Assembly: GCA_016185525.1 (NCBI GenBank) | Contig: JACPNK010000002.1 | Span: 75,616-139,615 of the forward strand | From: Candidatus Yanofskybacteria bacterium | GTDB taxonomy: Bacteria > Patescibacteriota > Minisyncoccia > 2-02-FULL-40-12 > IGHO2-12-FULL-4 | Direction: 5' to 3' | DNA: 64,000 nucleotides | Shown here: positions 3,140 through 39,071 of the stretch, in pieces | How positions within the stretch are numbered: the first letter of the stretch is position 1 | Layout: every line of letters begins with the position of its first letter | Notes under the pieces: model-generated | What the model was told of the DNA's origin: nothing | What the model saw: the letters and a program-made list of their open reading frames with translations, nothing else | Database searches by the model: none | Made by a program: the position numbers and the translations under genes

Positions 3140-3170
3140 GAACCCCATTACGATGGGGTTTTGTTTTTTT
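3140..3170 (+). terminator. intrinsic terminator (aaccccat-tacg-atggggtt plus T-run)
   Basis: 8-bp GC-containing stem followed by TTTTGTTTTTTT. Confidence 0.55.
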
Positions 3171-3189
3171 GGTTTACTTTTGTTATCAT
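3161..3189 (+). promoter_or_regulatory. promoter TTGTTT-N17-TATCAT placed 7 nt before ATG 3196 (leaderless start); module duplicated at 4625..4653
   Basis: 27 nt tttgtttttttggtttacttttgttat identical at 3160-3186 and 4625-4651; ATG at same offset in both copies. Confidence 0.45.
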
Positions 3190-3195
3190 TTTCTT

Positions 3196-3384
3196 ATGCC
3201 GCAATTGTCTAAGAAAACAGCCCAAGAGTTTCAGGACGGGCTATTCAAAAAGATGTCTGCGTGGAAAAAAATCAGCTTGGCAAGCCAGTTTTACTGTTGG
3301 TCAAGAACGTTGCAAGCATTAAACAGCAACCATGGAACAAGAAAAACTTCTCTTAAAGCTGGGAAAAATACTCGGCAAACTTAA
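3196..3384 (+). CDS. small basic ORF (62 aa) at leaderless start, overlaps nucleotidyltransferase gene in another frame
   Basis: ATG positionally equivalent to lysS start in duplicated promoter module; no homology recognised; could be spurious or N-terminal extension via frameshift. Confidence 0.25.
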   Translation: MPQLSKKTAQEFQDGLFKKMSAWKKISLASQFYCWSRTLQALNSNHGTRKTSLKAGKNTRQT

Positions 3385-4600: not shown

Positions 4601-4634
4601 GGCCTTGGCAACTGCTAAGGCTTTTTGTTTTTTT
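4601..4634 (+). terminator. intrinsic terminator (gcctt-N10-aaggc plus T-run), preceded by second hairpin tcctgtcagg/cctgacagga
   Basis: Hairpin followed by TTTTTGTTTTTTT; immediately followed by duplicated promoter module. Confidence 0.5.
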
Positions 4635-4653
4635 GGTTTACTTTTGTTATTAT
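4625..4653 (+). promoter_or_regulatory. promoter TTGTTT-N17-TATTAT giving leaderless lysS mRNA
   Basis: -10 ends 7 nt before lysS ATG 4660; no SD. Confidence 0.45.
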
Positions 4654-4659
4654 TTCCTT

Positions 4660-6117
4660 ATGTCTTTGGAAGATATAAAACAGGTAAAACTGGAAAAGTT
4701 GGAACTGCTTAAGAAAGCTGGGGTTGACCCTTACCCGGCCAAGTCTTGGCGCACGCATGAAATTAAGCAGGCTCTGGAAAATTTTGAAAAACTTTCTGAA
4801 GAGAAAGAAAGGATAGTTTTGGTCGGTCGGGTTATGGCTAAGCGAGAACATGGAGCATCTGTGTTTTTGGATATTCAAGATACCAGTGCCCAAACTCAAG
4901 TTTATTTTAAAAAAGATGTCATTGGCGACTATGACTATGAGCTTTTTTCCAAAACCGTTGATATCGGAGATTTTATTGAGGTTTCCGGTTTTTTATTTAA
5001 AACAAAAAAAGAAGAAAAAACTTTGGAAGTTGAGAAGTATCGGATGCTGGCAAAGTCTTTTTTGCCTTTGCCGGAAAAATGGCACGGACTGCAAGATATT
5101 GAGGAGCGTTTCCGCAAAAGATATTTGGATTTGATTTTTAATCCCGAAGTCAAGGAAAAGTTTGAGATGCGCAGTAAGATAGTCCAAACTTTGCGGGATT
5201 TCATGGTTGGGAACGAATTTATGGAAGTGGTGACGCCGACACTACAGCCTCTCTATGGCGGGGCTTCGGCTCGGCCGTTTAAAACACATATGCACGACTT
5301 GGATATAGATCTGTATTTACGTATTGCGCCGGAGCTTTATCTCAAAAGGCTTTTGGTTGGCGGTTTTGAAAAAGTTTTTGAATTTACGACTAACTTTCGA
5401 AATGAGGGCATGGACCGGGACCACAATCCTGAATTTTCTGTGTTGGAATTTTATGCCGCTTACAAAGATTTGGATTGGCTGATGAATTTTACCGAAGAAA
5501 TTTTTGAAAATTTGCTGGTTCAGGTTTTCGGCCAGGTGAAAATAAAATATGAAGACAAAGAGATTGATTTTGCTCGGCCTTTTAAAAGAGCTAGATTCAA
5601 TGATTTGCTTAAGAAATATTGCGATCTTGATTACGAAACAAACAGCGAAGATGAATTTTGGAACAAAGCCGAGAAATTAAATGTTAAAATAGAAAAAAAA
5701 GTCGCTAAGCCGGGTTTGGCTGACGAACTGTTTAAAAAAGTTGTCAGGCCAAAATTGCTAGAGCCGATTTTTGTGACTGATTGGCCGGCTGATGTTCTGC
5801 CTTTGGCTAAGAAAATATACAATTCTGATTTCGTAAACGCTTTTCAATTTTTTGCGGGCGGGAACGAACTTATAAAAGCGTTTCAGGAGTTGAATGATCC
5901 TTTGGATCAGCGCGCAAGATTTGAAGTCCAAGAAAACAGACGGGCAAAGGGCGAAGAAGAAGCCCAAAGAATGGATGAAGACTTTATTGAAGCCCTAGAA
6001 TATGGCATGCCGCCGGCGGCCGGCTGGGGCTTGGGAATTGACCGTTTGATAGCCATGCTCACCGATTCCCATTCGGTCAGAGAAGTGATATTGTTTCCAC
6101 TGATGAAACCAAGATAA
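4660..6117 (+). CDS. lysS: lysine--tRNA ligase, class II
   Basis: Class II motifs FEFTTNFRNEGMDRDHNPEF, GGASARPF, EYGMPPAAGWGLGIDRL; table ORF starts at alternative TTG 4633 but ATG 4660 (MSLEDIKQ) is the likely start. Confidence 0.95.
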   Translation: MSLEDIKQVKLEKLELLKKAGVDPYPAKSWRTHEIKQALENFEKLSEEKERIVLVGRVMAKREHGASVFLDIQDTSAQTQVYFKKDVIGDYDYELFSKTVDIGDFIEVSGFLFKTKKEEKTLEVEKYRMLAKSFLPLPEKWHGLQDIEERFRKRYLDLIFNPEVKEKFEMRSKIVQTLRDFMVGNEFMEVVTPTLQPLYGGASARPFKTHMHDLDIDLYLRIAPELYLKRLLVGGFEKVFEFTTNFRNEGMDRDHNPEFSVLEFYAAYKDLDWLMNFTEEIFENLLVQVFGQVKIKYEDKEIDFARPFKRARFNDLLKKYCDLDYETNSEDEFWNKAEKLNVKIEKKVAKPGLADELFKKVVRPKLLEPIFVTDWPADVLPLAKKIYNSDFVNAFQFFAGGNELIKAFQELNDPLDQRARFEVQENRRAKGEEEAQRMDEDFIEALEYGMPPAAGWGLGIDRLIAMLTDSHSVREVILFPLMKPR

Positions 6118-6218: not shown

Positions 6219-7466
6219 ATGCTTGACATCAAATTCATTCGTCAAAATCCGGAGTTAGTTAAAGAAGCGTCTCGGAAAAAGGGAGTCAAAGTTGATATTG
6301 ACCAGCTTTTGGCTGTGGATGAGAGGCGCAGGCATGTTTTGCGGGAATTGGAACAAAAAAGAAGCGAACAGAACAAGGGCTCTACGGGTGGACCGAAATT
6401 GCCGGTTGAGTTAGAGAAATTAAAAAAACTGAAAGAAGAAATTAAAATTCTTGAAGAGGGGATCGGTCATATTGAAAAAGAATTTGACGAACTGATGCTT
6501 CAAGTGCCGCAAGTTCCCGATGTTTCAGTTCCGGAGGGCAGGAGCGATGCTGACAACAAAGAAATCAGAAATTGGGGCAAGATTCCTAAATTTGATTTTA
6601 AGGCAAAAGACTATGTAGAACTTATGGCGGATTTAAATTTGATTGACACAGAAAGGGGGGCCAAGGTTTCCGGTTTCCGAGGTTATTTTCTAAAAAACGA
6701 AGCCGTCTTGCTTTCTCAAGCCTTATGGAGTTTGGCTTTAGAGAAAATTATTAAAAAAGGTTTTACGCCTCTTGTCGCTCCGGCTATCGCTAAAGGTTTT
6801 AATTTTGTCGGCACCGGCTGGCTGCCGCAGGGTAAAGACGAGGTTTATAAAATTGGTGAGGATGACTTTTTAATTGGCACCTCTGAAGTTTCGGTTATGG
6901 GTTATCACGCCAATGAGGTTTTGTCGGAAAAGAATTTGCCTAAAAAATATATTGCTTTTTCTCCTTGTTTTCGTTCCGAGGCCGGTTCTTATGGCAAGGA
7001 CACAAAAGGAATTTTCCGGGTGCATGAATTTTATAAAATTGAGCAGGTAGTTATTTGTAAAAATGACCACGAAGAATCAGTAAGGTGGCACGAGGAAATT
7101 ACCAAGAATTCCGAAGAATTAATGCAAGCCCTGAAACTGCCGTACAGAGTTGTGGTAAATTGCGCCGGTGACTTAGGTTTGGGACAAGTGAAGAAATATG
7201 ATATTGAGACTTGGTTGCCTTCTCAAGAGAGATACAGAGAAACTCATTCGGCTTCTTACTTTCACGATTTTCAGACCAGAAGATTGGGCATAAGATACAA
7301 AGACAAACACAGTAAAATACAATTTGCCTACTCGCTTAATAATACCGCCGTTGCCACGCCCAGAATTTTGGCGAATATTGTGGAAAATTATCAGACCAAG
7401 AAGGGGACGGTAAAAATTCCGAAGGTTTTGCAGAAGTATATGTTTGGGGTTAAAGAAATAAAATGA
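6219..7466 (+). CDS. serS: serine--tRNA ligase
   Basis: N-terminal MLDIKFIRQNPE coiled-coil arm, class II motifs FRSEAGSYGKDTKGIFRVHEF, GLGQ..KYDIE. Confidence 0.95.
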   Translation: MLDIKFIRQNPELVKEASRKKGVKVDIDQLLAVDERRRHVLRELEQKRSEQNKGSTGGPKLPVELEKLKKLKEEIKILEEGIGHIEKEFDELMLQVPQVPDVSVPEGRSDADNKEIRNWGKIPKFDFKAKDYVELMADLNLIDTERGAKVSGFRGYFLKNEAVLLSQALWSLALEKIIKKGFTPLVAPAIAKGFNFVGTGWLPQGKDEVYKIGEDDFLIGTSEVSVMGYHANEVLSEKNLPKKYIAFSPCFRSEAGSYGKDTKGIFRVHEFYKIEQVVICKNDHEESVRWHEEITKNSEELMQALKLPYRVVVNCAGDLGLGQVKKYDIETWLPSQERYRETHSASYFHDFQTRRLGIRYKDKHSKIQFAYSLNNTAVATPRILANIVENYQTKKGTVKIPKVLQKYMFGVKEIK

Positions 7467-7652: not shown

Positions 7653-8771
7653 ATGAATACTCAAAACCAAAAAACTTGGGTAGAAATTTCAAAAGATGCT
7701 CTCAAGTACAATGTAGAAACTATAAAAAGGCTGGCTCAAGGAAAGATTGTGATGGGAGTGGTGAAATCTAACGCTTACGGGCACGGCTTGGTGGAAACTG
7801 CCAAGCTCTTTTTAAAATACGGCGTTGATTGGCTGGGCGTAGATAATGTTGATGAAGCTGTTCTGCTTCGCAAAGCCAAAGTAAGCTCCCTCATTTTGGT
7901 TTTAGGCTACACGCCAGTAGCTTTCTTTTCTCTGGCGGCAAAGTACAAAATAAAACTGACTTTGTATGGCGAAGAAGTTTTTAAGCAATCGTCAAAATTC
8001 AAAAAACAAATTGATTTTCATCTGAAAGTTGACACCGGTATGTCTCGCCAAGGTGTCACCTTGGACGATTTGCCCGGATACCTAGCGTCCTTAAAAAATT
8101 TTTCGGATGTAAAACTTGAGGGCGTTTTTACTCATTTTGCCAATGCTGACAATCTCTCTGACCCCAGTTATCCCAGACGGCAGTTGGCTAATTTCCGCCA
8201 AGCTTTGGAGATAATCAAAAATTTTGGTTTAACGCCAAAAATGGTTCACGCCGCCGCTACCACCGGGCTTTTTGCTTTACCCGAAGCTTTATTTGATATG
8301 GTCAGAATCGGGGTTGCGTTTTACGGCTTATGGCCGTCGCAGGAGTTTAAAAATCGTTTCTCTAGTTTTAATTTGAAGCCGGTTTTGAATTGGAAAACCA
8401 GAATTATACAAATTAAAAAAATCTCTAGGGGCACTCCGGTCGGCTATGGTATCACCGAAAAAGTTAAGAAGGATTCGCTGATAGCTTTACTGCCCATCGG
8501 CTACTACGATGGTTATTTCAGAGCTCTTTCTTCGATTGGCGAAGTTTTAATTTCTGGCTCACGCTGTAAAATTCTAGGCAGAATTTCTATGAATTTATCG
8601 GTAGTTGATATCAGTGCAATTAACGGCGCTAAAGTCGGCGATGAAGCGGTTTTGATCGGCCAAATGGGCGGAGAACAGATAACGGCTGAAGAAATTGCAA
8701 AAAGACTCGGCACGATAAGCTACGAGGTGGTTTCTAGAATCAATCCTTTACTTCCCAGGATTTACATCTAA
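7653..8771 (+). CDS. alr: alanine racemase
   Basis: PLP-lysine motif VVKSNAYGHG near N-terminus; C-terminal racemase domain; 372 aa. Confidence 0.9.
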   Translation: MNTQNQKTWVEISKDALKYNVETIKRLAQGKIVMGVVKSNAYGHGLVETAKLFLKYGVDWLGVDNVDEAVLLRKAKVSSLILVLGYTPVAFFSLAAKYKIKLTLYGEEVFKQSSKFKKQIDFHLKVDTGMSRQGVTLDDLPGYLASLKNFSDVKLEGVFTHFANADNLSDPSYPRRQLANFRQALEIIKNFGLTPKMVHAAATTGLFALPEALFDMVRIGVAFYGLWPSQEFKNRFSSFNLKPVLNWKTRIIQIKKISRGTPVGYGITEKVKKDSLIALLPIGYYDGYFRALSSIGEVLISGSRCKILGRISMNLSVVDISAINGAKVGDEAVLIGQMGGEQITAEEIAKRLGTISYEVVSRINPLLPRIYI

Positions 8772-14218: not shown

Positions 14219-14264
14219 TTCCTACTGATAAGTACTGAGAAGTTGAACTGAGAAGTTGAACTTC

Positions 14265-16046
14265 TCAGTAGGTTAACCTATAAACAAAGATTGAGTTGCC
14301 GATAGCGGTAACGGGGGTGTGGTTTTGGAGCCAGATGTAATTTACTGACTTGTATTGGTCCGGCGGGCCTTGCGATGACTGCAAAAAAGAAGCGGAGACG
14401 GCAAGCCAGCCGTCTGTTTGATTTCTGGCGGCAAAATCTTCGGCGTTAAGATATTTGGTTCCATTGAGAGCTTCGTACTTGATTCCCAGGTAATAATAAG
14501 GATCAGCCCAGCCGAAGTAATCAAATTCAATTTTGGGAATGTTGTTTTCTTTAACCCAATCAGAAAAACGTTTTAAATCTTGGCCCCAGTCAAGATTTGA
14601 GTCCACAACATAGCGGTAACCGCCTGACGGTCCGCCGACTGTTTGGTTGAAGTAGGTTAAATAGTAAGGACTGACAGAAAGATTTTCAAAAATATACCAA
14701 CCCAACAATGTTATAAGTAATAGGTTATGGGTTATAAGTAATTTTTTAAACTTGTAACTTGTAACCTGTAACTTGTAACTAATTCTTTCCAATTGACCGG
14801 AAACTAAAATAATTGCAAAAGGGTAAGTCGGCAACAAGTGCCGGACACCGATATTTAAAGTGCTGTTAATGCTCAAAGCCCAGTAAAAAACCAGCCACAA
14901 AATCATGGCTGTTTCCGTAAAATTATTTTTTACCCAATTTTTAAAATTTAAAAATTGAAAATTGAAAATTGAAAATTGAACTATTGCGCTAATGAGCGCA
15001 ATAGTTAGGAGCCCCCACCAAGCCAAAGGTTCTTTTATAAGGTAAACGATTGGGAAATAGTGCCGCCAGCCGAAACGCGAGACCTCCCCCAAAAAGTAGG
15101 TCGTGTTGCCGCCGACTGAACGCTGGGTCACCATCAGCAAACCCAAACCGTATTGGGCGGCTATCCTTAAGACAGGCTTGTCGGACGCCCAAACTATCGG
15201 GTCAGCCAACAACCTATTGCCGAAAGTTTCTAAAGTTTGATTTGTGTCGCTGTATTGGCGCTCCGGCAGATAGTTCCAAGTATGAAAAGCATAGACGGGC
15301 ATTACAACAATAACGAAAGCTGTTACTGCTAGAAGTATGCTATGAGCGGGGAGCTTTAAGTGATTCTTTTGGGAGATAAACGCATAAATTAAAGCCAGGC
15401 CAAAAAAGAAAGGGATTAGCATAAATGTGGAGAATTTGGTCAAAAGAGCTATCCCTAAAAAAATGCTTGCCAGCCAAAAATTTTTGGCAGTTTGATTTTT
15501 TAAGTAGCGAAAGAAAAAGTATGTGGCATACAATATGCCGAAAAGAGCCGGGATGTCGGTGGTGACGAAACGGGAATGGGCTAAAACCGTCGGCGAAAAA
15601 GAAAATAAGATTAAGGCTGTTAGTCCGGCTTTATTGCCGTACAGTTTCTTTGTCCAACGAAAAATTAAAATTGCCGATAAGATAAAAAATAAAAGCATCG
15701 GCTGTTTTACTAAATGGGTGATTTGATTGGCGTTGTTGCCGGAATTGAATATCAGTTTTCGGCCAAATTCCCATTGGCCGTTAAGGTCGTTTTGCCAAGA
15801 TTTTGTATCAAAAACGTCTTGTTTAAGTTTTAAAAAGAGCAAGGGAATGGCCGCCAAGTCTTTGACCAAAGGCGGATGTTCCGGATTGAGGCGCATATCT
15901 TGCTTAACTAAATATGAGTAACCCGCTCCGATATGCGGTATTTCATCAACAATCAAAGAGTCGTTCCAACTGCTGGTTACCGCCAGAATTACGGCGACAG
16001 AAATAATTAGGCCGGCAAGAAGTTTTGTTTTGTGGTCTGATTTCAT
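14265..16046 (-). CDS. GT-C fold glycosyltransferase, family 39-like (ArnT/PMT-type) membrane protein
   Basis: N-terminal ...SLIVDEIPHIGAGYSY (DE motif in first loop), >12 TM helices, 593 aa. Confidence 0.8.
   Translation of the reverse strand: MKSDHKTKLLAGLIISVAVILAVTSSWNDSLIVDEIPHIGAGYSYLVKQDMRLNPEHPPLVKDLAAIPLLFLKLKQDVFDTKSWQNDLNGQWEFGRKLIFNSGNNANQITHLVKQPMLLFFILSAILIFRWTKKLYGNKAGLTALILFSFSPTVLAHSRFVTTDIPALFGILYATYFFFRYLKNQTAKNFWLASIFLGIALLTKFSTFMLIPFFFGLALIYAFISQKNHLKLPAHSILLAVTAFVIVVMPVYAFHTWNYLPERQYSDTNQTLETFGNRLLADPIVWASDKPVLRIAAQYGLGLLMVTQRSVGGNTTYFLGEVSRFGWRHYFPIVYLIKEPLAWWGLLTIALISAIVQFSIFNFQFLNFKNWVKNNFTETAMILWLVFYWALSINSTLNIGVRHLLPTYPFAIILVSGQLERISYKLQVTSYKFKKLLITHNLLLITLLGWYIFENLSVSPYYLTYFNQTVGGPSGGYRYVVDSNLDWGQDLKRFSDWVKENNIPKIEFDYFGWADPYYYLGIKYEALNGTKYLNAEDFAARNQTDGWLAVSASFLQSSQGPPDQYKSVNYIWLQNHTPVTAIGNSIFVYRLTY
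14751..14780. repeat. heptanucleotide tandem repeat (cttgtaa x4, one variant) inside GT39 gene
   Basis: cttgtaacttgtaacctgtaacttgtaact; plus direct repeat ttataagtaa at 14711 and 14732. Confidence 0.8.
14953..15006. repeat. heptanucleotide tandem repeat (aattgaa x4) followed by perfect 12-bp-stem hairpin aactattgcgct-aatg-agcgcaatagtt, inside GT39 gene
   Basis: Read directly; 7-mer unit not multiple of 3. Confidence 0.8.
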
Positions 16047-16053
16047 TTAAATA

Positions 16054-16137
16054 ACACCGATTTTTGTGTATGCCTCTTTTTTGCGTCGGACTGTCGCCGC
16101 CGAACTGCAAAAGAGGCATACACATCAAATCGGTTAA
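16054..16137 (-). other. long near-perfect hairpin (accgattttTgtgtatgcctcttttttgc ... gcaaaagaggcatacacAtcaaatcggt) with GC-rich 22-nt loop, between two GT-C genes
   Basis: ~28-bp arms with two mismatches; sits between stop of 16140..17102 and start of 14265..16046. Confidence 0.6.
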
Positions 16138-19417: not shown

Positions 19418-20281
19418 ATGGGTGTATTTTTAGCGCTGCTGACATTGGTTTTTTGGGGTTTCGGTGACTTTTTAATTCAAAAAAGCGCCCGCAGATTCGG
19501 CGACAGCATCGCCCTTTTTTATATTACATTTGCCGGCATGGTCGGTTTCTTTCCCTGGGCAATCAAAGATTTAAAGTTGATAATAGCTTCTCCTCTTAAT
19601 TTGTTCCTTTTGCTGGCCGCCGGCGTGGTTATATTCTTTGCGGCAATGTTTGATTTTGAGGGTTTGCGCAAAGGCAAAATGTCCGTCATAGAGCCGGTGC
19701 TGGCTCTGGAGGTAATTGTTACGACTGTTTTGGCAAGTTTAGTTTTGAAAGAGTTTCTTACTGCTTGGCAAATACTCTGGTTAGCTCTAGGAATTTTGGG
19801 GATACTTTTGGTTTCGTTAAAGTCTCTAGCTCATCTTAAAAAAATTAATCTGGAAAAGGGCGTCATCTATGCTCTCTTTGGCGCCCTTGCCATGGGTTTT
19901 TCCAACTTTCTTTTTGGCTGGGGTTCAAGGCAGATCAATCCGATCGTGGTCAACTGGTTTACCGACGCTTTTGTTGTTTTGGTTTTGGCCGTACACTTAA
20001 CCCGCACAGAGCGCTGGAAAGAAGTCTGGCAAGACTGGCGCAAATCCAAGAAACTTATTTTAGGCGTCAGTATTTTAGACAATATGGCTTGGCTTACTTT
20101 TTCATACAGTATGCTTCTGATTCCGATTGCCATCGCTACCGGGATTAGTGAGAGCTACATTGCTTTGGCGGCAGCTCTGGGCTTGATTTTCAACAAGGAG
20201 AAGTTAAAAAAGCACCAGTGGTGGGGTTTGGTTCTGGCGATTGTCTCGGTTGTCCTAATTGCTTTCACAGTTTCAAGCTGA
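19418..20281 (+). CDS. EamA/DMT-family transporter (10 TM)
   Basis: Two EamA-like halves, GDFLIQKSARR segment, 287 aa. Confidence 0.65.
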   Translation: MGVFLALLTLVFWGFGDFLIQKSARRFGDSIALFYITFAGMVGFFPWAIKDLKLIIASPLNLFLLLAAGVVIFFAAMFDFEGLRKGKMSVIEPVLALEVIVTTVLASLVLKEFLTAWQILWLALGILGILLVSLKSLAHLKKINLEKGVIYALFGALAMGFSNFLFGWGSRQINPIVVNWFTDAFVVLVLAVHLTRTERWKEVWQDWRKSKKLILGVSILDNMAWLTFSYSMLLIPIAIATGISESYIALAAALGLIFNKEKLKKHQWWGLVLAIVSVVLIAFTVSS

Positions 20282-20286
20282 TTAAA

Positions 20287-20323
20287 TTGCACAAAGTCAG
20301 AAGCGTACTATAATCTTGAAAAA
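20287..20323 (+). promoter_or_regulatory. promoter TTGCAC-N16-TATAAT
   Basis: Would start transcription near 20330, just 5' of structured element. Confidence 0.4.
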
Positions 20324-20349
20324 CTTATTACTTAATGTTTTTGAAGGCT

Positions 20350-20473
20350 CTGCAGGCTGTGGATTGCTCGCGAGCCGCTTTTTCAGCCCATTCAGCAGAA
20401 TAAGATGAAAAAGCGGCGAGCTGGACGGAAAGAGTATAATACTTCTGTACTCTTTCCGAATCCACAGACTGCA
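20350..20473 (+). ncRNA. candidate structured RNA: three-way junction (15-bp closing helix, two 11-bp hairpin arms) with GC-rich 3' tail to ~20545
   Basis: Closing helix ctgcaggctgtggatt/aatccacagactgca; arm P ccgctttttca(20375-85)/tgaaaaagcgg(20405-15) extended by gctcg/cgagc; arm Q cggaaagagta/tactctttccg; palindrome gctcgcgagc; GC content above local background. Confidence 0.45.
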
Positions 20474-20570
20474 AAGAGCGAGCTTTCTCGCAGGAAGAAA
20501 GCGAGCGTCCGGAAAAAGCAGTAAGTAATAAGTTTTTTATTTACTTTAAATTTTATGCTATAATTAGTCC

Positions 20571-21008
20571 ATGGAAACACCCACTAGTTTAGAGCAGGAG
20601 ATTGCTGACATTGAGAGACGGCTGGCTGAAAAAAAGGCCCTTCGGCAAGTTCAGGGCGAACGGCCTGTTGTCCAAGAAGAAAAAGGCATGTTACATGAAG
20701 TCGTAAGCGAGAAAGCTCAAGAGTCTGCGCCAAGCTATCAGCCTTCTGCACCTCTACCACAATCTTCGCTTCCGGCCATAGACAATGTCTTGCCTCCGCC
20801 AGTAAGCGAGCCGCCTTCGTATTTGTCAGATGAGCTCAAAACCAAAGTCCAGGATTTGGTTAATATCGCTTTTACCAAAGGTCTGACTGAAGCAGTTAAA
20901 GAAGTTTCTAAAATGAATAATCCGGCTATCTTAGACGCTTTCCACGATGTTCTAGTAGACCAGCTTTATGACGTTTTGGTTGAAAGAGGGAAATTAGAAA
21001 AAATATGA
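20571..21008 (+). CDS. hypothetical protein (145 aa), Pro/Ser-rich linker
   Basis: TATAAT 9 nt upstream of ATG (leaderless-type). Confidence 0.45.
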   Translation: METPTSLEQEIADIERRLAEKKALRQVQGERPVVQEEKGMLHEVVSEKAQESAPSYQPSAPLPQSSLPAIDNVLPPPVSEPPSYLSDELKTKVQDLVNIAFTKGLTEAVKEVSKMNNPAILDAFHDVLVDQLYDVLVERGKLEKI

Positions 21009-27756: not shown

Positions 27757-27827
27757 TGCCGGGTGGTGAAGCGGTATCACGCCTGCCTTTGAAGCAGGAA
27801 TCCTAGGTCCGACCCCTAGCCCGGCAG
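27757..27827 (+). tRNA. tRNA-Gln (anticodon UUG)
   Basis: Cloverleaf: acceptor UGCCGGG/CCCGGCA (U1:A72, G73 as in bacterial tRNA-Gln), D-stem GUGA/UCAC with GG in loop, anticodon stem CCUGC/GCAGG loop CUUUGAA, T-stem CUAGG/CCUAG; no encoded CCA. Confidence 0.8.
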
Positions 27828-27829
27828 CA

Positions 27830-28582
27830 ATGAAATTCCCAAAAGATTTTATAAATAAGATTGTCTGCGGTGATGTTTTAGATGTGATGAGGCAGATCCC
27901 GGACGGCTCTATTGATTTAGTAATTACTTCACCGCCGTATAATCTCAAGAACTCTACCGGCAATGGCATGAAAGACGGGCGCGGCGGTAAATGGGCGAAC
28001 GCCGCATTACAAAAAGGTTATTCTCATCATAACGATAATATGCCTCACGAAGAATATGTTAAGTGGCAAAAGGATTGTCTTACAGAAATGATGCGGATTA
28101 TTCCGGACCACGGCGCAATCTTTTATAACCACAAGAGACGCGTTCAGGACGGCATATTACAGGATCGCCAAGATATAGTGAGTGGTTTTCCGGTACGCCA
28201 AATTATAATTTGGAAGCGTAAGGGTGGGTTCAACTTTAATCCCGGTTATTTTCTTCCCATTCACGAAGTTATTTATCTTATCGCAAAGCCAAAGTTTCAA
28301 CTTGTCCCTAAAGCCAATGCCCATGGTGATGTCTGGGAATTTACGCAAGAAATGAAAAATAAACATCCGGCTGCTTTTCCGGTTGATTTAATTGACCGGA
28401 TTGTTTCATCTACTAATGCCCAAACTATTTTAGACCCCTTCATTGGCTCCGGTACTACGGCAATCTCCGCTATCAATTATAAAAGAAATTATATTGGGAT
28501 TGAGATTTCTCCCGAATACTGTAAAATGGCACAACAAAGGATTAAAGGCCATAAATCTCAAGACCCCTTTTTATTACAATGA
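27830..28582 (+). CDS. DNA methyltransferase, beta-class N4-cytosine/N6-adenine (N6_N4_Mtase family)
   Basis: Motif IV SPPY (LVITSPPYN) near N-terminus and motif I DPFIGSGTT near C-terminus; starts 3 nt after tRNA. Confidence 0.9.
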   Translation: MKFPKDFINKIVCGDVLDVMRQIPDGSIDLVITSPPYNLKNSTGNGMKDGRGGKWANAALQKGYSHHNDNMPHEEYVKWQKDCLTEMMRIIPDHGAIFYNHKRRVQDGILQDRQDIVSGFPVRQIIIWKRKGGFNFNPGYFLPIHEVIYLIAKPKFQLVPKANAHGDVWEFTQEMKNKHPAAFPVDLIDRIVSSTNAQTILDPFIGSGTTAISAINYKRNYIGIEISPEYCKMAQQRIKGHKSQDPFLLQ

Positions 28583-29376
28583 AAAAAGAACCAGTTATTT
28601 ATACAAAACCGGCGCTTATAAAAAAGCTCAAAGAAATTGCCGCTCTGGGTTGGATTAAGAATGCTCGTCATGGCAATCAGGGCGGTGTTGGAAATACTTT
28701 AGAAGATTTGCTTGGTATAGAGGAAAACAATTTACCGATTCCCAACGCGGCCGAATGGGAGCTAAAGACACAAAGATTAAATTCCGGCTCTTTGTGTACT
28801 CTTTTTCATATGGAGCCATCGCCAAGGGCTATTGGATTTGTTCCAAAAGTCCTTTTGCCTAAATATGGCTGGGCTCATCAGGAGGACGGTAAAAAATATG
28901 CTAAAGGAGAGCTAAGTTTCCGATTGACTATCCACGGTCTTTCTAGGAGCGATCGCGGATTCATGGTTAAGATAGACCGGGCGGAAAAAAGGGTATTAAT
29001 CTCCTTTAATTCTAAAAGTGTAGATGTGCGGCACAAGAAATGGCTTAAATCAGTTGAGAAGCGTATAGGGTTAGGCGAATTAAACCCGCAACCCTATTGG
29101 GGGTTTGACGATTTAGAGCATAAAGCCGGCACTAAACTACTAAATGCTTTTTATGTTCAGGCCGAAGTTAAAAAGATACGAGGCAAAGAATATTACAAAT
29201 ATAGTAAGGTTATGATGTTGCAGAAGTTTAGTTTTGAGGGATTTTTGAGGGCCATCGAGGAAGCGCGAATTCTTGTAGATTTTGATGCCCGCACCGGCCA
29301 TAATCACGGGACGAAATTTAGGGTAAGGGAAGATAGTTTGCCGATGTTATATCAGAAAATAACTACCATATTATGA
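28579..29376 (+). CDS. Type II restriction endonuclease, MvaI/BcnI family
   Basis: Collinear pattern matches with BcnI/MvaI as recalled (GGVGNTLEDLLGIEENN..AEWELKT..SLCTLFHMEP; C-terminal GHNHGTKFRV..LPMLYQKI); ATGA overlap with MTase. Confidence 0.7.
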   Translation: MKKEPVIYTKPALIKKLKEIAALGWIKNARHGNQGGVGNTLEDLLGIEENNLPIPNAAEWELKTQRLNSGSLCTLFHMEPSPRAIGFVPKVLLPKYGWAHQEDGKKYAKGELSFRLTIHGLSRSDRGFMVKIDRAEKRVLISFNSKSVDVRHKKWLKSVEKRIGLGELNPQPYWGFDDLEHKAGTKLLNAFYVQAEVKKIRGKEYYKYSKVMMLQKFSFEGFLRAIEEARILVDFDARTGHNHGTKFRVREDSLPMLYQKITTIL

Positions 29377-30104: not shown

Positions 30105-30127
30105 GGTAAGTTTATCTTTTATAAGAC

Positions 30128-30358
30128 ATGTATATATTTAAATTTGTCTATTCTAATCTAGGTCTTATCCTAAACACACTAGGTAGTATTTTAGTAGTTG
30201 TATCTATTGGTAAATTTCCAGATGGTTTTGGTGGATCAACGACAAGTAATAAAGGTAGAGAATATCACTTTGCCTATGTAACTAGACCAACGGGTTTGAG
30301 AGCAGGTCTCTTGTTAATAATTCTAGGGTTTATCCTACAGATATTAGAGAAATATTAA
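30128..30358 (+). CDS. small 2-TM membrane protein (76 aa)
   Basis: Two hydrophobic helices; 23 nt after previous gene. Confidence 0.4.
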   Translation: MYIFKFVYSNLGLILNTLGSILVVVSIGKFPDGFGGSTTSNKGREYHFAYVTRPTGLRAGLLLIILGFILQILEKY

Positions 30359-30461
30359 TGTTGTATTAAATAGTTTCTAATGTCAGTCAGTGCCCGGCAG
30401 CCATCCTTCGCCAAGGCTTCGGAATGGCTTTGGCAAAACTTATGAAAGCTACGAACGAGCT

Positions 30462-30566
30462 GACCACGACGGGTCAAGAATGAATACGCCACCCGGGTGG
30501 CGTATTGAGGAGAACGGTATTTGCATTGCCCTTCCGAAATCCGCCAAATGGCAGAAGAAGGAGGGA
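30462..30566 (+). repeat. GC-rich repeat copy A (85-nt identical core 30482-30566 with perfect 24-bp palindrome AATACGCCACCCGGGTGGCGTATT); candidate structured RNA/mobile element
   Basis: Identical to 32836-32920; degenerate similarity extends upstream to ~30400. Confidence 0.85.
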
Positions 30567-30632
30567 CACCTTTTCCGGACCAAAGGTCGAAGTCAGATTT
30601 ACGCAGGGTGTTTTAATTGATATACTAGGTCT

Positions 30633-30833
30633 ATGCAAAAAATAGCTACAAAAATTTTCGTCTGGGCGTCCGTCGCTTTCGCCATCATCGGAATGCTGAT
30701 GGTTTTAACCACCTCTCCCACAAGTAACGGTCCGAACGTTATTTTGTTAAAATTTCTGTTCGCGGCTATTATCGTTATTTTGACCTCATTTGCCTTAAGC
30801 ATTGCCGGCAAGTATCTAAACGGTAAGTTTTAG
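30633..30833 (+). CDS. small membrane protein (66 aa)
   Basis: Two TM helices; weak. Confidence 0.3.
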   Translation: MQKIATKIFVWASVAFAIIGMLMVLTTSPTSNGPNVILLKFLFAAIIVILTSFALSIAGKYLNGKF

Positions 30834-30971
30834 TTCTAATGTGGCCAAGGAAATTAAATTTGTATAATAAGTTATGCGCATAAACAAATTTTACAAACTA
30901 GTTATTTCAGTTGCGTTGGTCACCGGCGAGAGGCGCGGCATATTTTTCATAGAACAATATGTAAGAATATC

Positions 30972-32643: not shown

Positions 32644-32815
32644 CAAATCCAAACGGCAGGTACAATTCTATACCTGCCAGTCGGGCACCGAATGGTACCC
32701 GATGATGAAGGGCCGGTTATGCCCATAATTGAGGTTCTAATATCGTCCAAGAAACGCAGCAGTCCCGTGACAGGCTTTGCCCGTCCATAGCCCCTTGACG
32801 AAGGAGGGTTCTTGC

Positions 32816-32920
32816 GACCACGACCTGTCAAAAACGAATACGCCACCCGGGTGGCGTATTGAGGAGAACGGTATTTGCATTGCCCTTCCGAAATCCGCCA
32901 AATGGCAGAAGAAGGAGGGA
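32816..32920 (+). repeat. GC-rich repeat copy B (85-nt core 32836-32920 identical to copy A)
   Basis: Direct repeat 2354 bp downstream of copy A; tails diverge but both contain ttttccggacc. Confidence 0.85.
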
Positions 32921-33117
32921 TGTTTTTCAATTCAACGATGGGGGATGGGGGCAACCGGCCCAGCAACAAGAACGGCGTTTTCCGGACCGTAGCATAAAGC
33001 GGGCCTGTGGATAATCGTTGACTTTAATTGTTTAGGTATGATAGTATATGAGTGTGCTTGTGGGCGAAAGCCCCGTTCAGCTAAGGAACACCTAAGCTGA
33101 AGGCAGGCACAACAAAA

Positions 33118-33140
33118 ACACCGCTTTAAGCGGTATTTTT
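33118..33140 (-). terminator. bidirectional hairpin caccgcttta-agcggt with flanking A/T runs
   Basis: On minus strand hairpin followed by UUUUUGUUGUG directly after stop of 33142..33603. Confidence 0.55.
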
Positions 33141-33141
33141 G

Positions 33142-38922: not shown

Positions 38923-38944
38923 GGTATAACAGTTATCAATTTTA

Positions 38945-39071
38945 ATACCGATATTGCACGTCCCCGTGCCGAAGTTGACACTTCGTTGAGACGAAGTCCC
39001 AAGACGGGACTTGCAGTCAAAGACCAAGTCAATATCGGGAACGGGACGGTCAATATCGGCATTGGGACGTG
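38945..39071 (+). promoter_or_regulatory. structured leader/operator: tandem direct repeats GTCAATATCGG-N4-GGGACG x2 (39028-39069, overlapping GTG start) plus inverted partner ccgatattgcacgtccc (38948-38964) and internal hairpins
   Basis: Long-range complement 38948-38964 vs 39043-39059 (15/17); hairpins gaagt-tgac-acttc and aagtccc-aagac-gggactt. Confidence 0.45.

Follow-up and report, generated by a model that had tools for sequence, protein, structure and literature searches.

A candidate family of duplicative structured elements between genes of Yanofskybacteria-like Paceibacteria

We describe a family of structured intergenic elements from tiny groundwater bacteria of the Candidate Phyla Radiation (CPR), starting from one member in a 64-kb window of a Candidatus Yanofskybacteria genome (Parcubacteria; contig JACPNK010000002.1). 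The window is the whole stretch of DNA analyzed, and positions refer to it unless another locus is named. Its member, folded at 20319-20537, separates a gene for an EamA-family transporter from a gene for a 145-aa protein. The family is previously undescribed, and we read it, with a probability of roughly 0.55, as a new group of non-autonomous, duplicative, structured elements occupying intergenic spaces in Yanofskybacteria-like Paceibacteria. Because young, closely alike copies lie at new sites, old copies are fixed in place and filled and empty alleles of one site occur, we favor a duplicative family over a single conserved gene for a small RNA (sRNA).

Homologous loci and contigs gathered for comparison with the window are numbered L001 to L117. 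More than 100 homologues of the 145-aa protein exist, and 80 loci taken from genomes plus 20 further contigs were compared. Protein P0001 is named HYX21_00745 in the source.

Fold, covariation and strand

The element occupies a 289-nt gap between the stop codon of the EamA-family gene (19418-20281, assigned with Pfam) and the ATG at 20571 of the 145-aa gene. The minimum free energy (MFE) of the element region was -107.7 kcal/mol, compared to -66.0 +/- 4.8 kcal/mol for shuffled sequences (z = -8.6), with no shuffle equaling it; the minus strand gave the same MFE z of -8.6. A chance palindrome was ruled out by the z-scores of both strands and by the existence of homologues. The folded strand is predicted to form a rod with two three-way junctions and five helices, P1 to P5 (Table 1), an RNA-like architecture. 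P5 branches between P2 and P1, and GUCCGGAAAAAGCAG is the junction between P5 and P1 in the family. The strands of the P3 arm are 20374-93 and 20398-417. An A5 run before P1 mirrors the T6 run after it, creating a symmetric hairpin; most other copies lack such a T-run.

A first-pass annotation of this DNA had proposed a single three-way junction. That junction is real (20348-20476), and the TTGCAC-N16-TATAAT boxes, closing helix, two arms, palindrome GCTCGCGAGC, GCGAGC repeats and second TATAAT it listed are present where it placed them, but the junction is nested within a longer fold with two such junctions (20319-20537). The 24-nt helix enclosing everything (20319-42 / 20514-37) had been overlooked. 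The AU hairpin and U-run that it placed at ~20530 consist of the P1 3' arm and the T6 after it, and the supposed GC-rich tail is the conserved hairpin P5 (20478-20506), an integral part of the element.

Table 1. Positions of the element's parts, its flanking features and the second copy in the window
Feature	Position	Strand	Details
Left TTAAATT direct repeat	20282..20288		7 bp; flanks the extra segment
Promoter-like TTGCAC-N16-TATAAT	20288..20315	+	3 nt before P1; within the segment that is extra relative to empty-site relatives
P1 5' arm, outer closing helix, AAAAACTTATTACTTAATGTTTTT	20319..20342	+	24 nt, 92% complementary to 20514-37
P2 5' strand, CTCTGCAGGCTGTGGATT	20348..20365	+	18 nt, 89% complementary to 20459-76
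P3 (arm 1), long hairpin	20367..20424	+	conserved internal loop GCCCAUUC / AUAAGA; conserved basal U·G
P4 (arm 2), 11-bp hairpin	20426..20458	+	GUAUAAU in loop; strands 20426-36 / 20448-58, perfect
P2 3' strand, AATCCACAGACTGCAAAG	20459..20476	+	partner of 20348-65; 14-copy alignment
P5 side hairpin	20478..20506	+	tandem G·A internal loop CGAG/CGAG; CGCAGGA loop (consensus CGCUGGA)
P1 3' arm, leading into T-run	20514..20537	+	pairs with 20319-42; MFE fold
T6 run, TTTTTTATTT	20532..20542	+	directly 3' of P1; terminator-like for transcripts from the left
Right TTAAATT direct repeat	20546..20552		flanks the extra segment
Extended -10, TGCTATAAT	20556..20573	+	outside the element; 6 nt before ATG 20571; predicted leaderless promoter of the 145-aa gene
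Second copy in the window, diverged, without P3	7473..7634	-	z = -8.5; 106 bits, E = 1e-28

Compensatory changes pervade the fold. In a MAFFT-only alignment of six copies, RNAalifold predicted 81 pairs, 29 of which showed double compensatory changes. An alignment of 14 copies, whose pair numbers are somewhat inflated by its fitting to a covariance model, contained standard pairs in 96.2% of 820 cells, compared to 78.5% after shuffling and 39-46% with slid partners; 48 of its 66 pairs had changed on both sides, and none of 500 shuffles matched any of five pairing measures. P1 forms a helix in every copy and is always paired; its outer 7-20 bp differ fully in sequence from copy to copy, and only the inner GCUUUU/AAAAGC is shared. 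P2 is near-invariant in close copies and covaries in distant ones (the second window copy, L114 and L090). Double changes affected 12 of 20 pairs in P3, where the basal U·G is kept in ten of 11 copies. Despite the inflation noted above, compensation stands out in the raw sequences, the P3 arm being GCCGCUUUUUC/GAAAAAGCGGC in the window copy but GUUAC.../...GUAAC in L102a and GUCAC.../...GUGAC in L103. Double changes affected nine of ten pairs in P4, with a UAUAAU loop in most of the 14 copies, and eight of ten in P5, where the loop-closing C-G is present in 14 of 14 and the stem reads GCUUUCU/AGAAAGC in the window compared to GUUUCUU/AAGAAAC in L102a. The GG of the consensus GAAGG junction pairs with the CC of GUCCGGA. 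These patterns indicate that selection would maintain the fold and not the sequence.

The Rfam 15 collection (4,227 models) returned only a tRNA-Gln for the window at the gathering threshold. At E <= 10, the region 20200-20650 matched only mir-3473 (14.7 bits) and a lncRNA (9.5 bits), both noise, and at E <= 1, six other copies yielded no match over the elements, including to the HEARO model. The first-pass annotation had listed the structure as a candidate novel RNA and had named a match to a known family or a lack of compensatory changes as evidence to the contrary; the Rfam searches and the changes in 29 of 81 and 48 of 66 pairs provided neither.

With moderate confidence, one particular strand is the folded one, which for the copy at 20319-20537 is the plus strand. 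Among modeled pairs, G·U exceeds A·C at 36:9 cells and 21:8 columns, and in 11 of 15 copies the sense strand has the more stable fold. The element is probably transcribed, and its folded form would be RNA or single-stranded DNA (ssDNA). Covariation alone does not separate the two, because compensatory stem changes are also common in REPINs, hairpin-forming doublets built from REP (repetitive extragenic palindromic) sequences, whose hairpins are predicted 'in ssDNA or mRNA' (PMC3116915). Upstream of P1 in the window copy, TTGCAC (20288-93) and TATAAT (20310-15) are spaced by 16 nt, with a perfect -10 box and a -35 box that agrees with TTGACA at only three of six positions; a promoter scan of the window did not list this pair, which fell below its threshold. 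Terminator-like ends, either T-runs or canonical terminators, accompany ~4 of 15 copies, with a canonical terminator 3' of L102b.

We consider the element non-coding, because no reading frame stays open across copies (stops occur in all frames), its five open reading frames (ORFs) are absent from a collection of 15 billion proteins and a profile of the antisense translations found no protein. A 39-aa basic ORF (20405-20524) and a 22-aa ORF are interrupted in other copies. A type I toxin-antitoxin or small-protein locus was rejected on the same interruption of short ORFs and the lack of protein matches.

Copies and their genomic settings

Further copies were found by scanning metagenome contigs for a pattern containing both strands of the inner P2 helix (GCAGKCTGTGGATT-N78-108-AATCCACAGMC, 25 specified bases) and by two covariance models, R1, built after homologues had been aligned, and a subsequent R2. 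The pattern scan retrieved five loci, four of them clear homologues, with two copies (L102a and L102b) at the L102 locus. Pattern scan and models together provided 14 solid copies scoring 60-213 bits, and elements span 150-230 nt across copies. The diverged second copy of the window, labeled window 7482, was recognized only once homologues had been aligned. Its neighbors are serS (6219-7466) and alr (7653-8771), and it is antisense to each of them. Fetching serS-alr loci from relatives yielded three copies in L117 and a single one each in L116 and L114; orthologous copies occupy this locus, with unchanged orientation, in L114, L116 and L117, making four genomes with the window. Copy density reaches two in the 64-kb window, three in the 19-kb L117 and two in the 13-kb L102 locus. 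Some copies have lost arms: window 7482, L114 and L010 have no P3, and L090 has neither P3 nor P4.

Adding R2 contributed two borderline GC-rich copies in L068 and a further one in L026. The L068 copies (787-911 and 5249-5375 of that contig) are near-identical, 4.4 kb apart and 74% GC, match the family weakly at 27-30 bits and keep its helix order and CGCAGGA loop. If real, they would place the family in a GC-rich lineage of Paceibacteria as well, its sequence there having turned over almost completely. Searches elsewhere were negative. Seeds from the terminal arm gave good matches in the window only to the element's own two arms, the rest having two to three mismatches, near chance. Phage and plasmid blastn searches left the element unmatched, IMG/VR left two core motifs unmatched and a looser palindrome pattern gave random matches only.

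All copies are intergenic, and their neighbors are unrelated housekeeping genes: PolX/MGMT, subtilase/MFS, Rpe/PfkB, mreB/mreC, PBP/greA, serS/alr and EamA/145-aa. The neighborhoods of ten copies had no gene in common. Relative to adjacent genes, ~12 copies are antisense, three are sense and one lies between convergent genes. The copies most alike are non-orthologous: the window copy at 20335 and L099 (87% identity), and L103 and L102a (91%). Orthologous serS-alr copies share 59-71% identity with the fold kept, at a locus where the alr DNA itself is 75-82% identical. The first-pass annotation had proposed an independent sRNA. Independence from the downstream gene stands, as shown below, but a single-copy conserved sRNA gene at this locus does not: the element is absent or replaced in the closest relatives, multi-copy, found in both orientations and has the identity pattern of a duplicative or mobile repeat.

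The locus of the 145-aa gene

The TATAAT at 20559-64 ends 6 nt 5' of ATG 20571, and eight relatives (L088, L087, L005, L004, L090, L104, L111 and L113) have a TGnTATAAT-like box 6-8 nt 5' of the ATG. Because this conserved extended -10 box adjoins the ATG in relatives, the 145-aa gene appears leaderless and the element is not its leader, in agreement with the separate downstream promoter proposed by the first-pass annotation. The conserved box implies a leaderless mRNA heading a cluster that encodes the 145-aa protein, a 446-aa protein, a VirD4/TraG-like ATPase (DUF87/TrwB), GtrA and DnaX.

Spacers 5' of the 145-aa homologues range from 2 to 435 nt and are mostly short, and most of ~90 loci lack the element. 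Empty sites include L088, where the EamA stop codon is followed by 25 nt and the ATG, L111 with a 12-nt spacer and L112 with a 2-nt spacer and no EamA gene. BLAST of the element against the fetched loci matched only identical Logan contigs and detected no similarity upstream of the homologues. In L004, the closest syntenic relative with an 88% identical protein, another branched palindrome occupies the same spot, as one does in L090; that of L004 is reversed, very diverged and borderline at 17.5 bits. The palindrome of L104 is borderline or undetected by the models. With R1, a reversed family member was identified at the 145-aa locus in L010 and L090/L091. L087 and L005 lack the core and are alignable from ~20502 onward, including the 3' arm of P1 and sequence beyond; this shared 3' sequence looks like the remnant of a deletion.

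Excising 20289-20552 (~264 nt) leaves a 25-nt spacer, TAAAT...TATAAT...ATG, with the length and layout of L088. Together with the TTAAATT repeats, this spacer is consistent with an insertion accompanied by target duplication. The boundaries of such an insertion are complicated by the sequence that L087 and L005 share 3' of P1. The EamA gene is present between the genes for a 114-aa and the 145-aa protein in the window, L004, L088 and L111 and not in L005, L087, L090, L104 and L112. Since its presence varies among relatives, we regard this position as a hot spot both for the structured element and for genes being gained and lost.

Other palindromes and variants occur at this locus. Logan contigs of five sequencing runs (L001, L002, L084-L086) end at 20393 or begin at 20395, and that of a sixth run (L003) ends at 20374; these breaks read as a population variant at 20394, the first base of the P3 loop, rather than an inversion. 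A different palindrome of ~118 nt with the ends CCCGTACGAAG.../...CTTCGTACGGG directly precedes the 145-aa ATG in two distant genomes (L005 2382-2500 and L016 ~2345-2467). The interiors differ, and TTACGGGRTAA is common to both. In L005, a duplicated ATGGA on either side of the palindrome regenerates the start codon. The palindrome may represent either a second mobile family or a structure in the 5' untranslated region (UTR). Spacers 5' of the 145-aa gene in L013, L022, L028 and L032 contain very strong palindromes (z of -7.6 to -9.5) unmatched by the model, including a ~180-nt Y-shaped structure in the 354-nt spacer of L013 and tandem GTGGAAA-containing repeats in L022. These genomes seem rich in diverse intergenic palindromes.

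The window contains further repeats and hairpins. A 105-nt repeat at 30462-30566 and 32816-32920 (96% identity, 2.3 kb apart, two strong hairpins each) lies in the gene-free stretches 30105-30971 and 32644-33141, the 498-nt stretch having z = -5.1 and no Rfam match. An imperfect inverted repeat at 38944-39063, with 36-nt arms that are 78% complementary, lies in a 366-nt spacer before 39289; z for its region is -6.7, and the family models do not match it. Near-perfect intergenic hairpins at 14233-14270 and 16065-16124 (17- and 16-bp stems), one between convergent genes, look like unusually long bidirectional terminators. A tRNA gene probably hosts a small restriction-modification island at 27757-29376: directly after tRNA-Gln come genes for a DNA methylase (N6_N4_Mtase) and for a restriction endonuclease of the MvaI/BcnI family. 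Lastly, a 40-nt repeat with 95% identity occurs at 3159-3198 and 4623-4662, 1.5 kb apart.

Competing readings and comparison with known systems

As a duplicative family, the element would be a mobile unit resembling REPINs or miniature inverted-repeat transposable elements (MITEs), with an RNA-like architecture and several copies per genome. Some copies would be old and vertically inherited, and young ones would be near-identical at unrelated loci. At the window locus, a ~264-nt TTAAATT-flanked segment lies between the stop codon of EamA and the downstream gene's leaderless promoter; in the empty junction, TTAAATT would be joined straight to TTATGCTATAAT. The folded strand would be RNA, made here from the element's own weak promoter and at other copies via antisense or read-through transcription. 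In the window, P1 with T6 may end both the element's own transcript and that of EamA, and the downstream gene would be left unregulated by the element. The copying enzyme is presumably encoded elsewhere than near the element.

Several observations weigh against this reading. No transposase, reverse transcriptase or HUH domain was detected in sizeable ORFs of the window, and no such gene adjoins the other copies. Terminal sequences are unshared among copies, leaving no classical terminal inverted repeat. The serS-alr copy is fixed in place and orientation in four genomes, as a gene would be. The case for a TTAAATT target duplication comes from one copy only, compared with a relative only 79% identical in the flanking protein. 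Since copies were retrieved by the P2 pattern and by models built from them, P2 invariance and some pair statistics are ascertainment-biased. The part of P1 outside the model, scored symmetrically, has only eight G·T compared to five A·C, a weak strand asymmetry. Promoter-like boxes just 5' of P1 accompany ~4 of 15 copies (window 20319, L102b, L103 and L010).

Tentatively, the family might instead be a new CPR-specific class of structured RNA of ~200 nt, acting as the RNA part of an unrecognized mobile or RNA-dependent system whose partner protein is encoded elsewhere in these reduced genomes, by analogy with HEARO RNA before its link to IscB was understood. Somewhat more doubtful is the possibility that the copies are genes for trans-acting sRNAs of ~200 nt, each with its own promoter and a terminator made of P1 and the U-run, which recombination duplicates and which hold a cellular function such as protein binding, mobility being apparent. 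Such genes would account for the two three-way junctions, tandem G·A, conserved U·G, conserved loop and junction sequences and the 36:9 excess of G·U over A·C. They would also fit the TTGCAC-16-TATAAT and T6 that adjoin P1 of the window copy on its 5' and 3' sides, respectively, the canonical terminator after L102b, the -35/-10-like boxes at L102b, L103 and L010 and the synteny of the serS-alr copy in four genomes; most copies are antisense to their neighbors and, therefore, not simply parts of those mRNAs. However, sRNA genes would not be expected at up to three copies per 19 kb, with whole arms lost (P3 in window 7482, L114 and L010; P3 and P4 in L090), with presence, absence and orientation varying among the closest relatives at one locus or with higher identity between non-orthologous than between orthologous copies; convincing promoters or terminators are also missing from most copies.

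That the element is a REPIN-like ssDNA unit, its fold the substrate for an ssDNA transposase, single-copy HUH/RAYT-type or other, from elsewhere in the genome, with RNA uninvolved, appears unlikely. Like REPINs, it is extragenic, multi-copy, non-coding and hairpin-forming with compensatory changes (PMC3116915), and in DNA hairpins, too, no mismatch is milder than G·T. Long-lived vertical inheritance of REPIN-RAYT systems, as reported in a preprint (bioRxiv 10.1101/2022.05.22.493013), would suit the syntenic serS-alr copies. Nevertheless, the element is branched, ~200 nt long and not a symmetric doublet of short REPs; a reverse-strand model matches arm 1 only and P5 is one-sided, and the window has no Y1/HUH gene. 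The folded strand is mostly antisense to co-directional genes and, if genes follow replication, would correspond to the less exposed leading-strand template. Very improbable, and largely refuted by the distribution of copies, is an oversized Rho-independent terminator or 3'-UTR stabilizer of EamA, or a 5' leader or riboswitch of the 145-aa gene. Such roles would match the position between the EamA stop and the next start, the A5 and T6 runs flanking P1 and the long perfect post-gene hairpins elsewhere in the genome (14233-70 and 16065-124). Against them, the same element lies between unrelated genes in both orientations, EamA-bearing relatives have 12-25 nt at this site, spacers at ~90 homologous loci measure 2-435 nt and mostly lack the element, the leaderless promoter sits 6 nt before the downstream ATG, and conserved junction and loop sequences with five covarying helices exceed what a terminator needs. 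A leader or riboswitch of the 145-aa gene was rejected because family members occur at few such loci, mostly reversed, and the promoter ends 6 nt before the ATG. An intrinsic terminator was rejected on the mostly antisense orientation to the upstream gene, the lack of a U-tract in most copies and the five-helix fold.

Among known systems, REPINs share several features with the duplicative family proposed here: they are short, non-coding, extragenic, multi-copy, hairpin-forming on one strand and subject to compensatory changes, with a mobilizing enzyme encoded outside the element (PMC3116915). Long-term vertical persistence is a further likeness, REPIN-RAYT systems being reported in the same preprint as mostly vertically inherited and long-lived (bioRxiv 10.1101/2022.05.22.493013). 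A REPIN, however, is a symmetric doublet of a 20-25-nt REP forming one hairpin of ~70-110 nt, whereas the element is asymmetric, ~150-230 nt long and made of five helices with two three-way junctions, conserved sequences at junctions and in loops, and a variable terminal helix. When examined as a REP doublet, its reverse strand fitted the model only over arm 1, at 22 compared to 190-213 bits, with P3 and P4 unrelated. No RAYT (Y1 HUH) was found within the window.

MITE-like palindromic repeats of bacteria include Correia/NEMIS, ERIC, RUP, BOX and the Rickettsia palindromic elements. They are non-coding intergenic repeats of 100-250 bp that form long hairpins when transcribed, are polymorphic among strains and in some cases have promoter or terminator activity. 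Classical MITEs have terminal inverted repeats common to all copies and to the parent insertion sequence (IS), with defined target duplications. The element is likewise present in several copies per genome and devoid of coding capacity. It differs in that its terminal helix varies by copy and the conserved part is internal, its covariation is far deeper than a recent burst would leave and one copy is syntenic in four genomes. No ORF of the window contained a transposase domain that would point to a parent IS.

HEARO RNA was first an orphan motif and was later recognized as the omega-RNA of IscB. Like HEARO-like RNAs, the element is ~200 nt long, multi-helix, covarying and dispersed, with several copies per genome and a function that was at first unknown in the case of those RNAs. 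They adjoin a protein gene (IscB or TnpB), whereas the copies described here have no common neighbor gene. The first-pass annotation had noted a superficial likeness to helix 8 of signal recognition particle (SRP, 4.5S) RNA, and superficial it is: GUCCGGAAAAAGCAG resembles GUCCGGAAGGAAGCAG of 4.5S RNA, but the SRP models RF00169 and RF01854 had no match in 20200-20650 at E <= 10. SRP RNA is single copy, and its helix 8 has a GNAR tetraloop and conserved symmetric and asymmetric loops. The element is multi-copy, and the similar string is its P5-P1 junction and not a GNRA-capped helix.

CPR bacteria have very small genomes. The literature searched contained no paper on repeat or MITE-like families in CPR bacteria and none on a family-specific structured RNA. 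The family could represent the first REPIN- or MITE-like replicator of the CPR, with an elaborate fold read by some enzyme, or else a new multi-copy structured RNA. Either way, the covariance model, the 14 copies and the filled and empty sites offer a handle on the enzyme or partner that recognizes the fold. Elements of this kind break short-read assemblies of CPR genomes and, between housekeeping genes, separate promoters and terminators or give rise to them. In behavior, the element is closest to REPINs and MITE-like repeats, yet it lacks defining features of both, with no symmetric REP doublet, no shared terminal repeats and no partner enzyme in view, and its branched RNA-like architecture and deep covariation exceed those of either.

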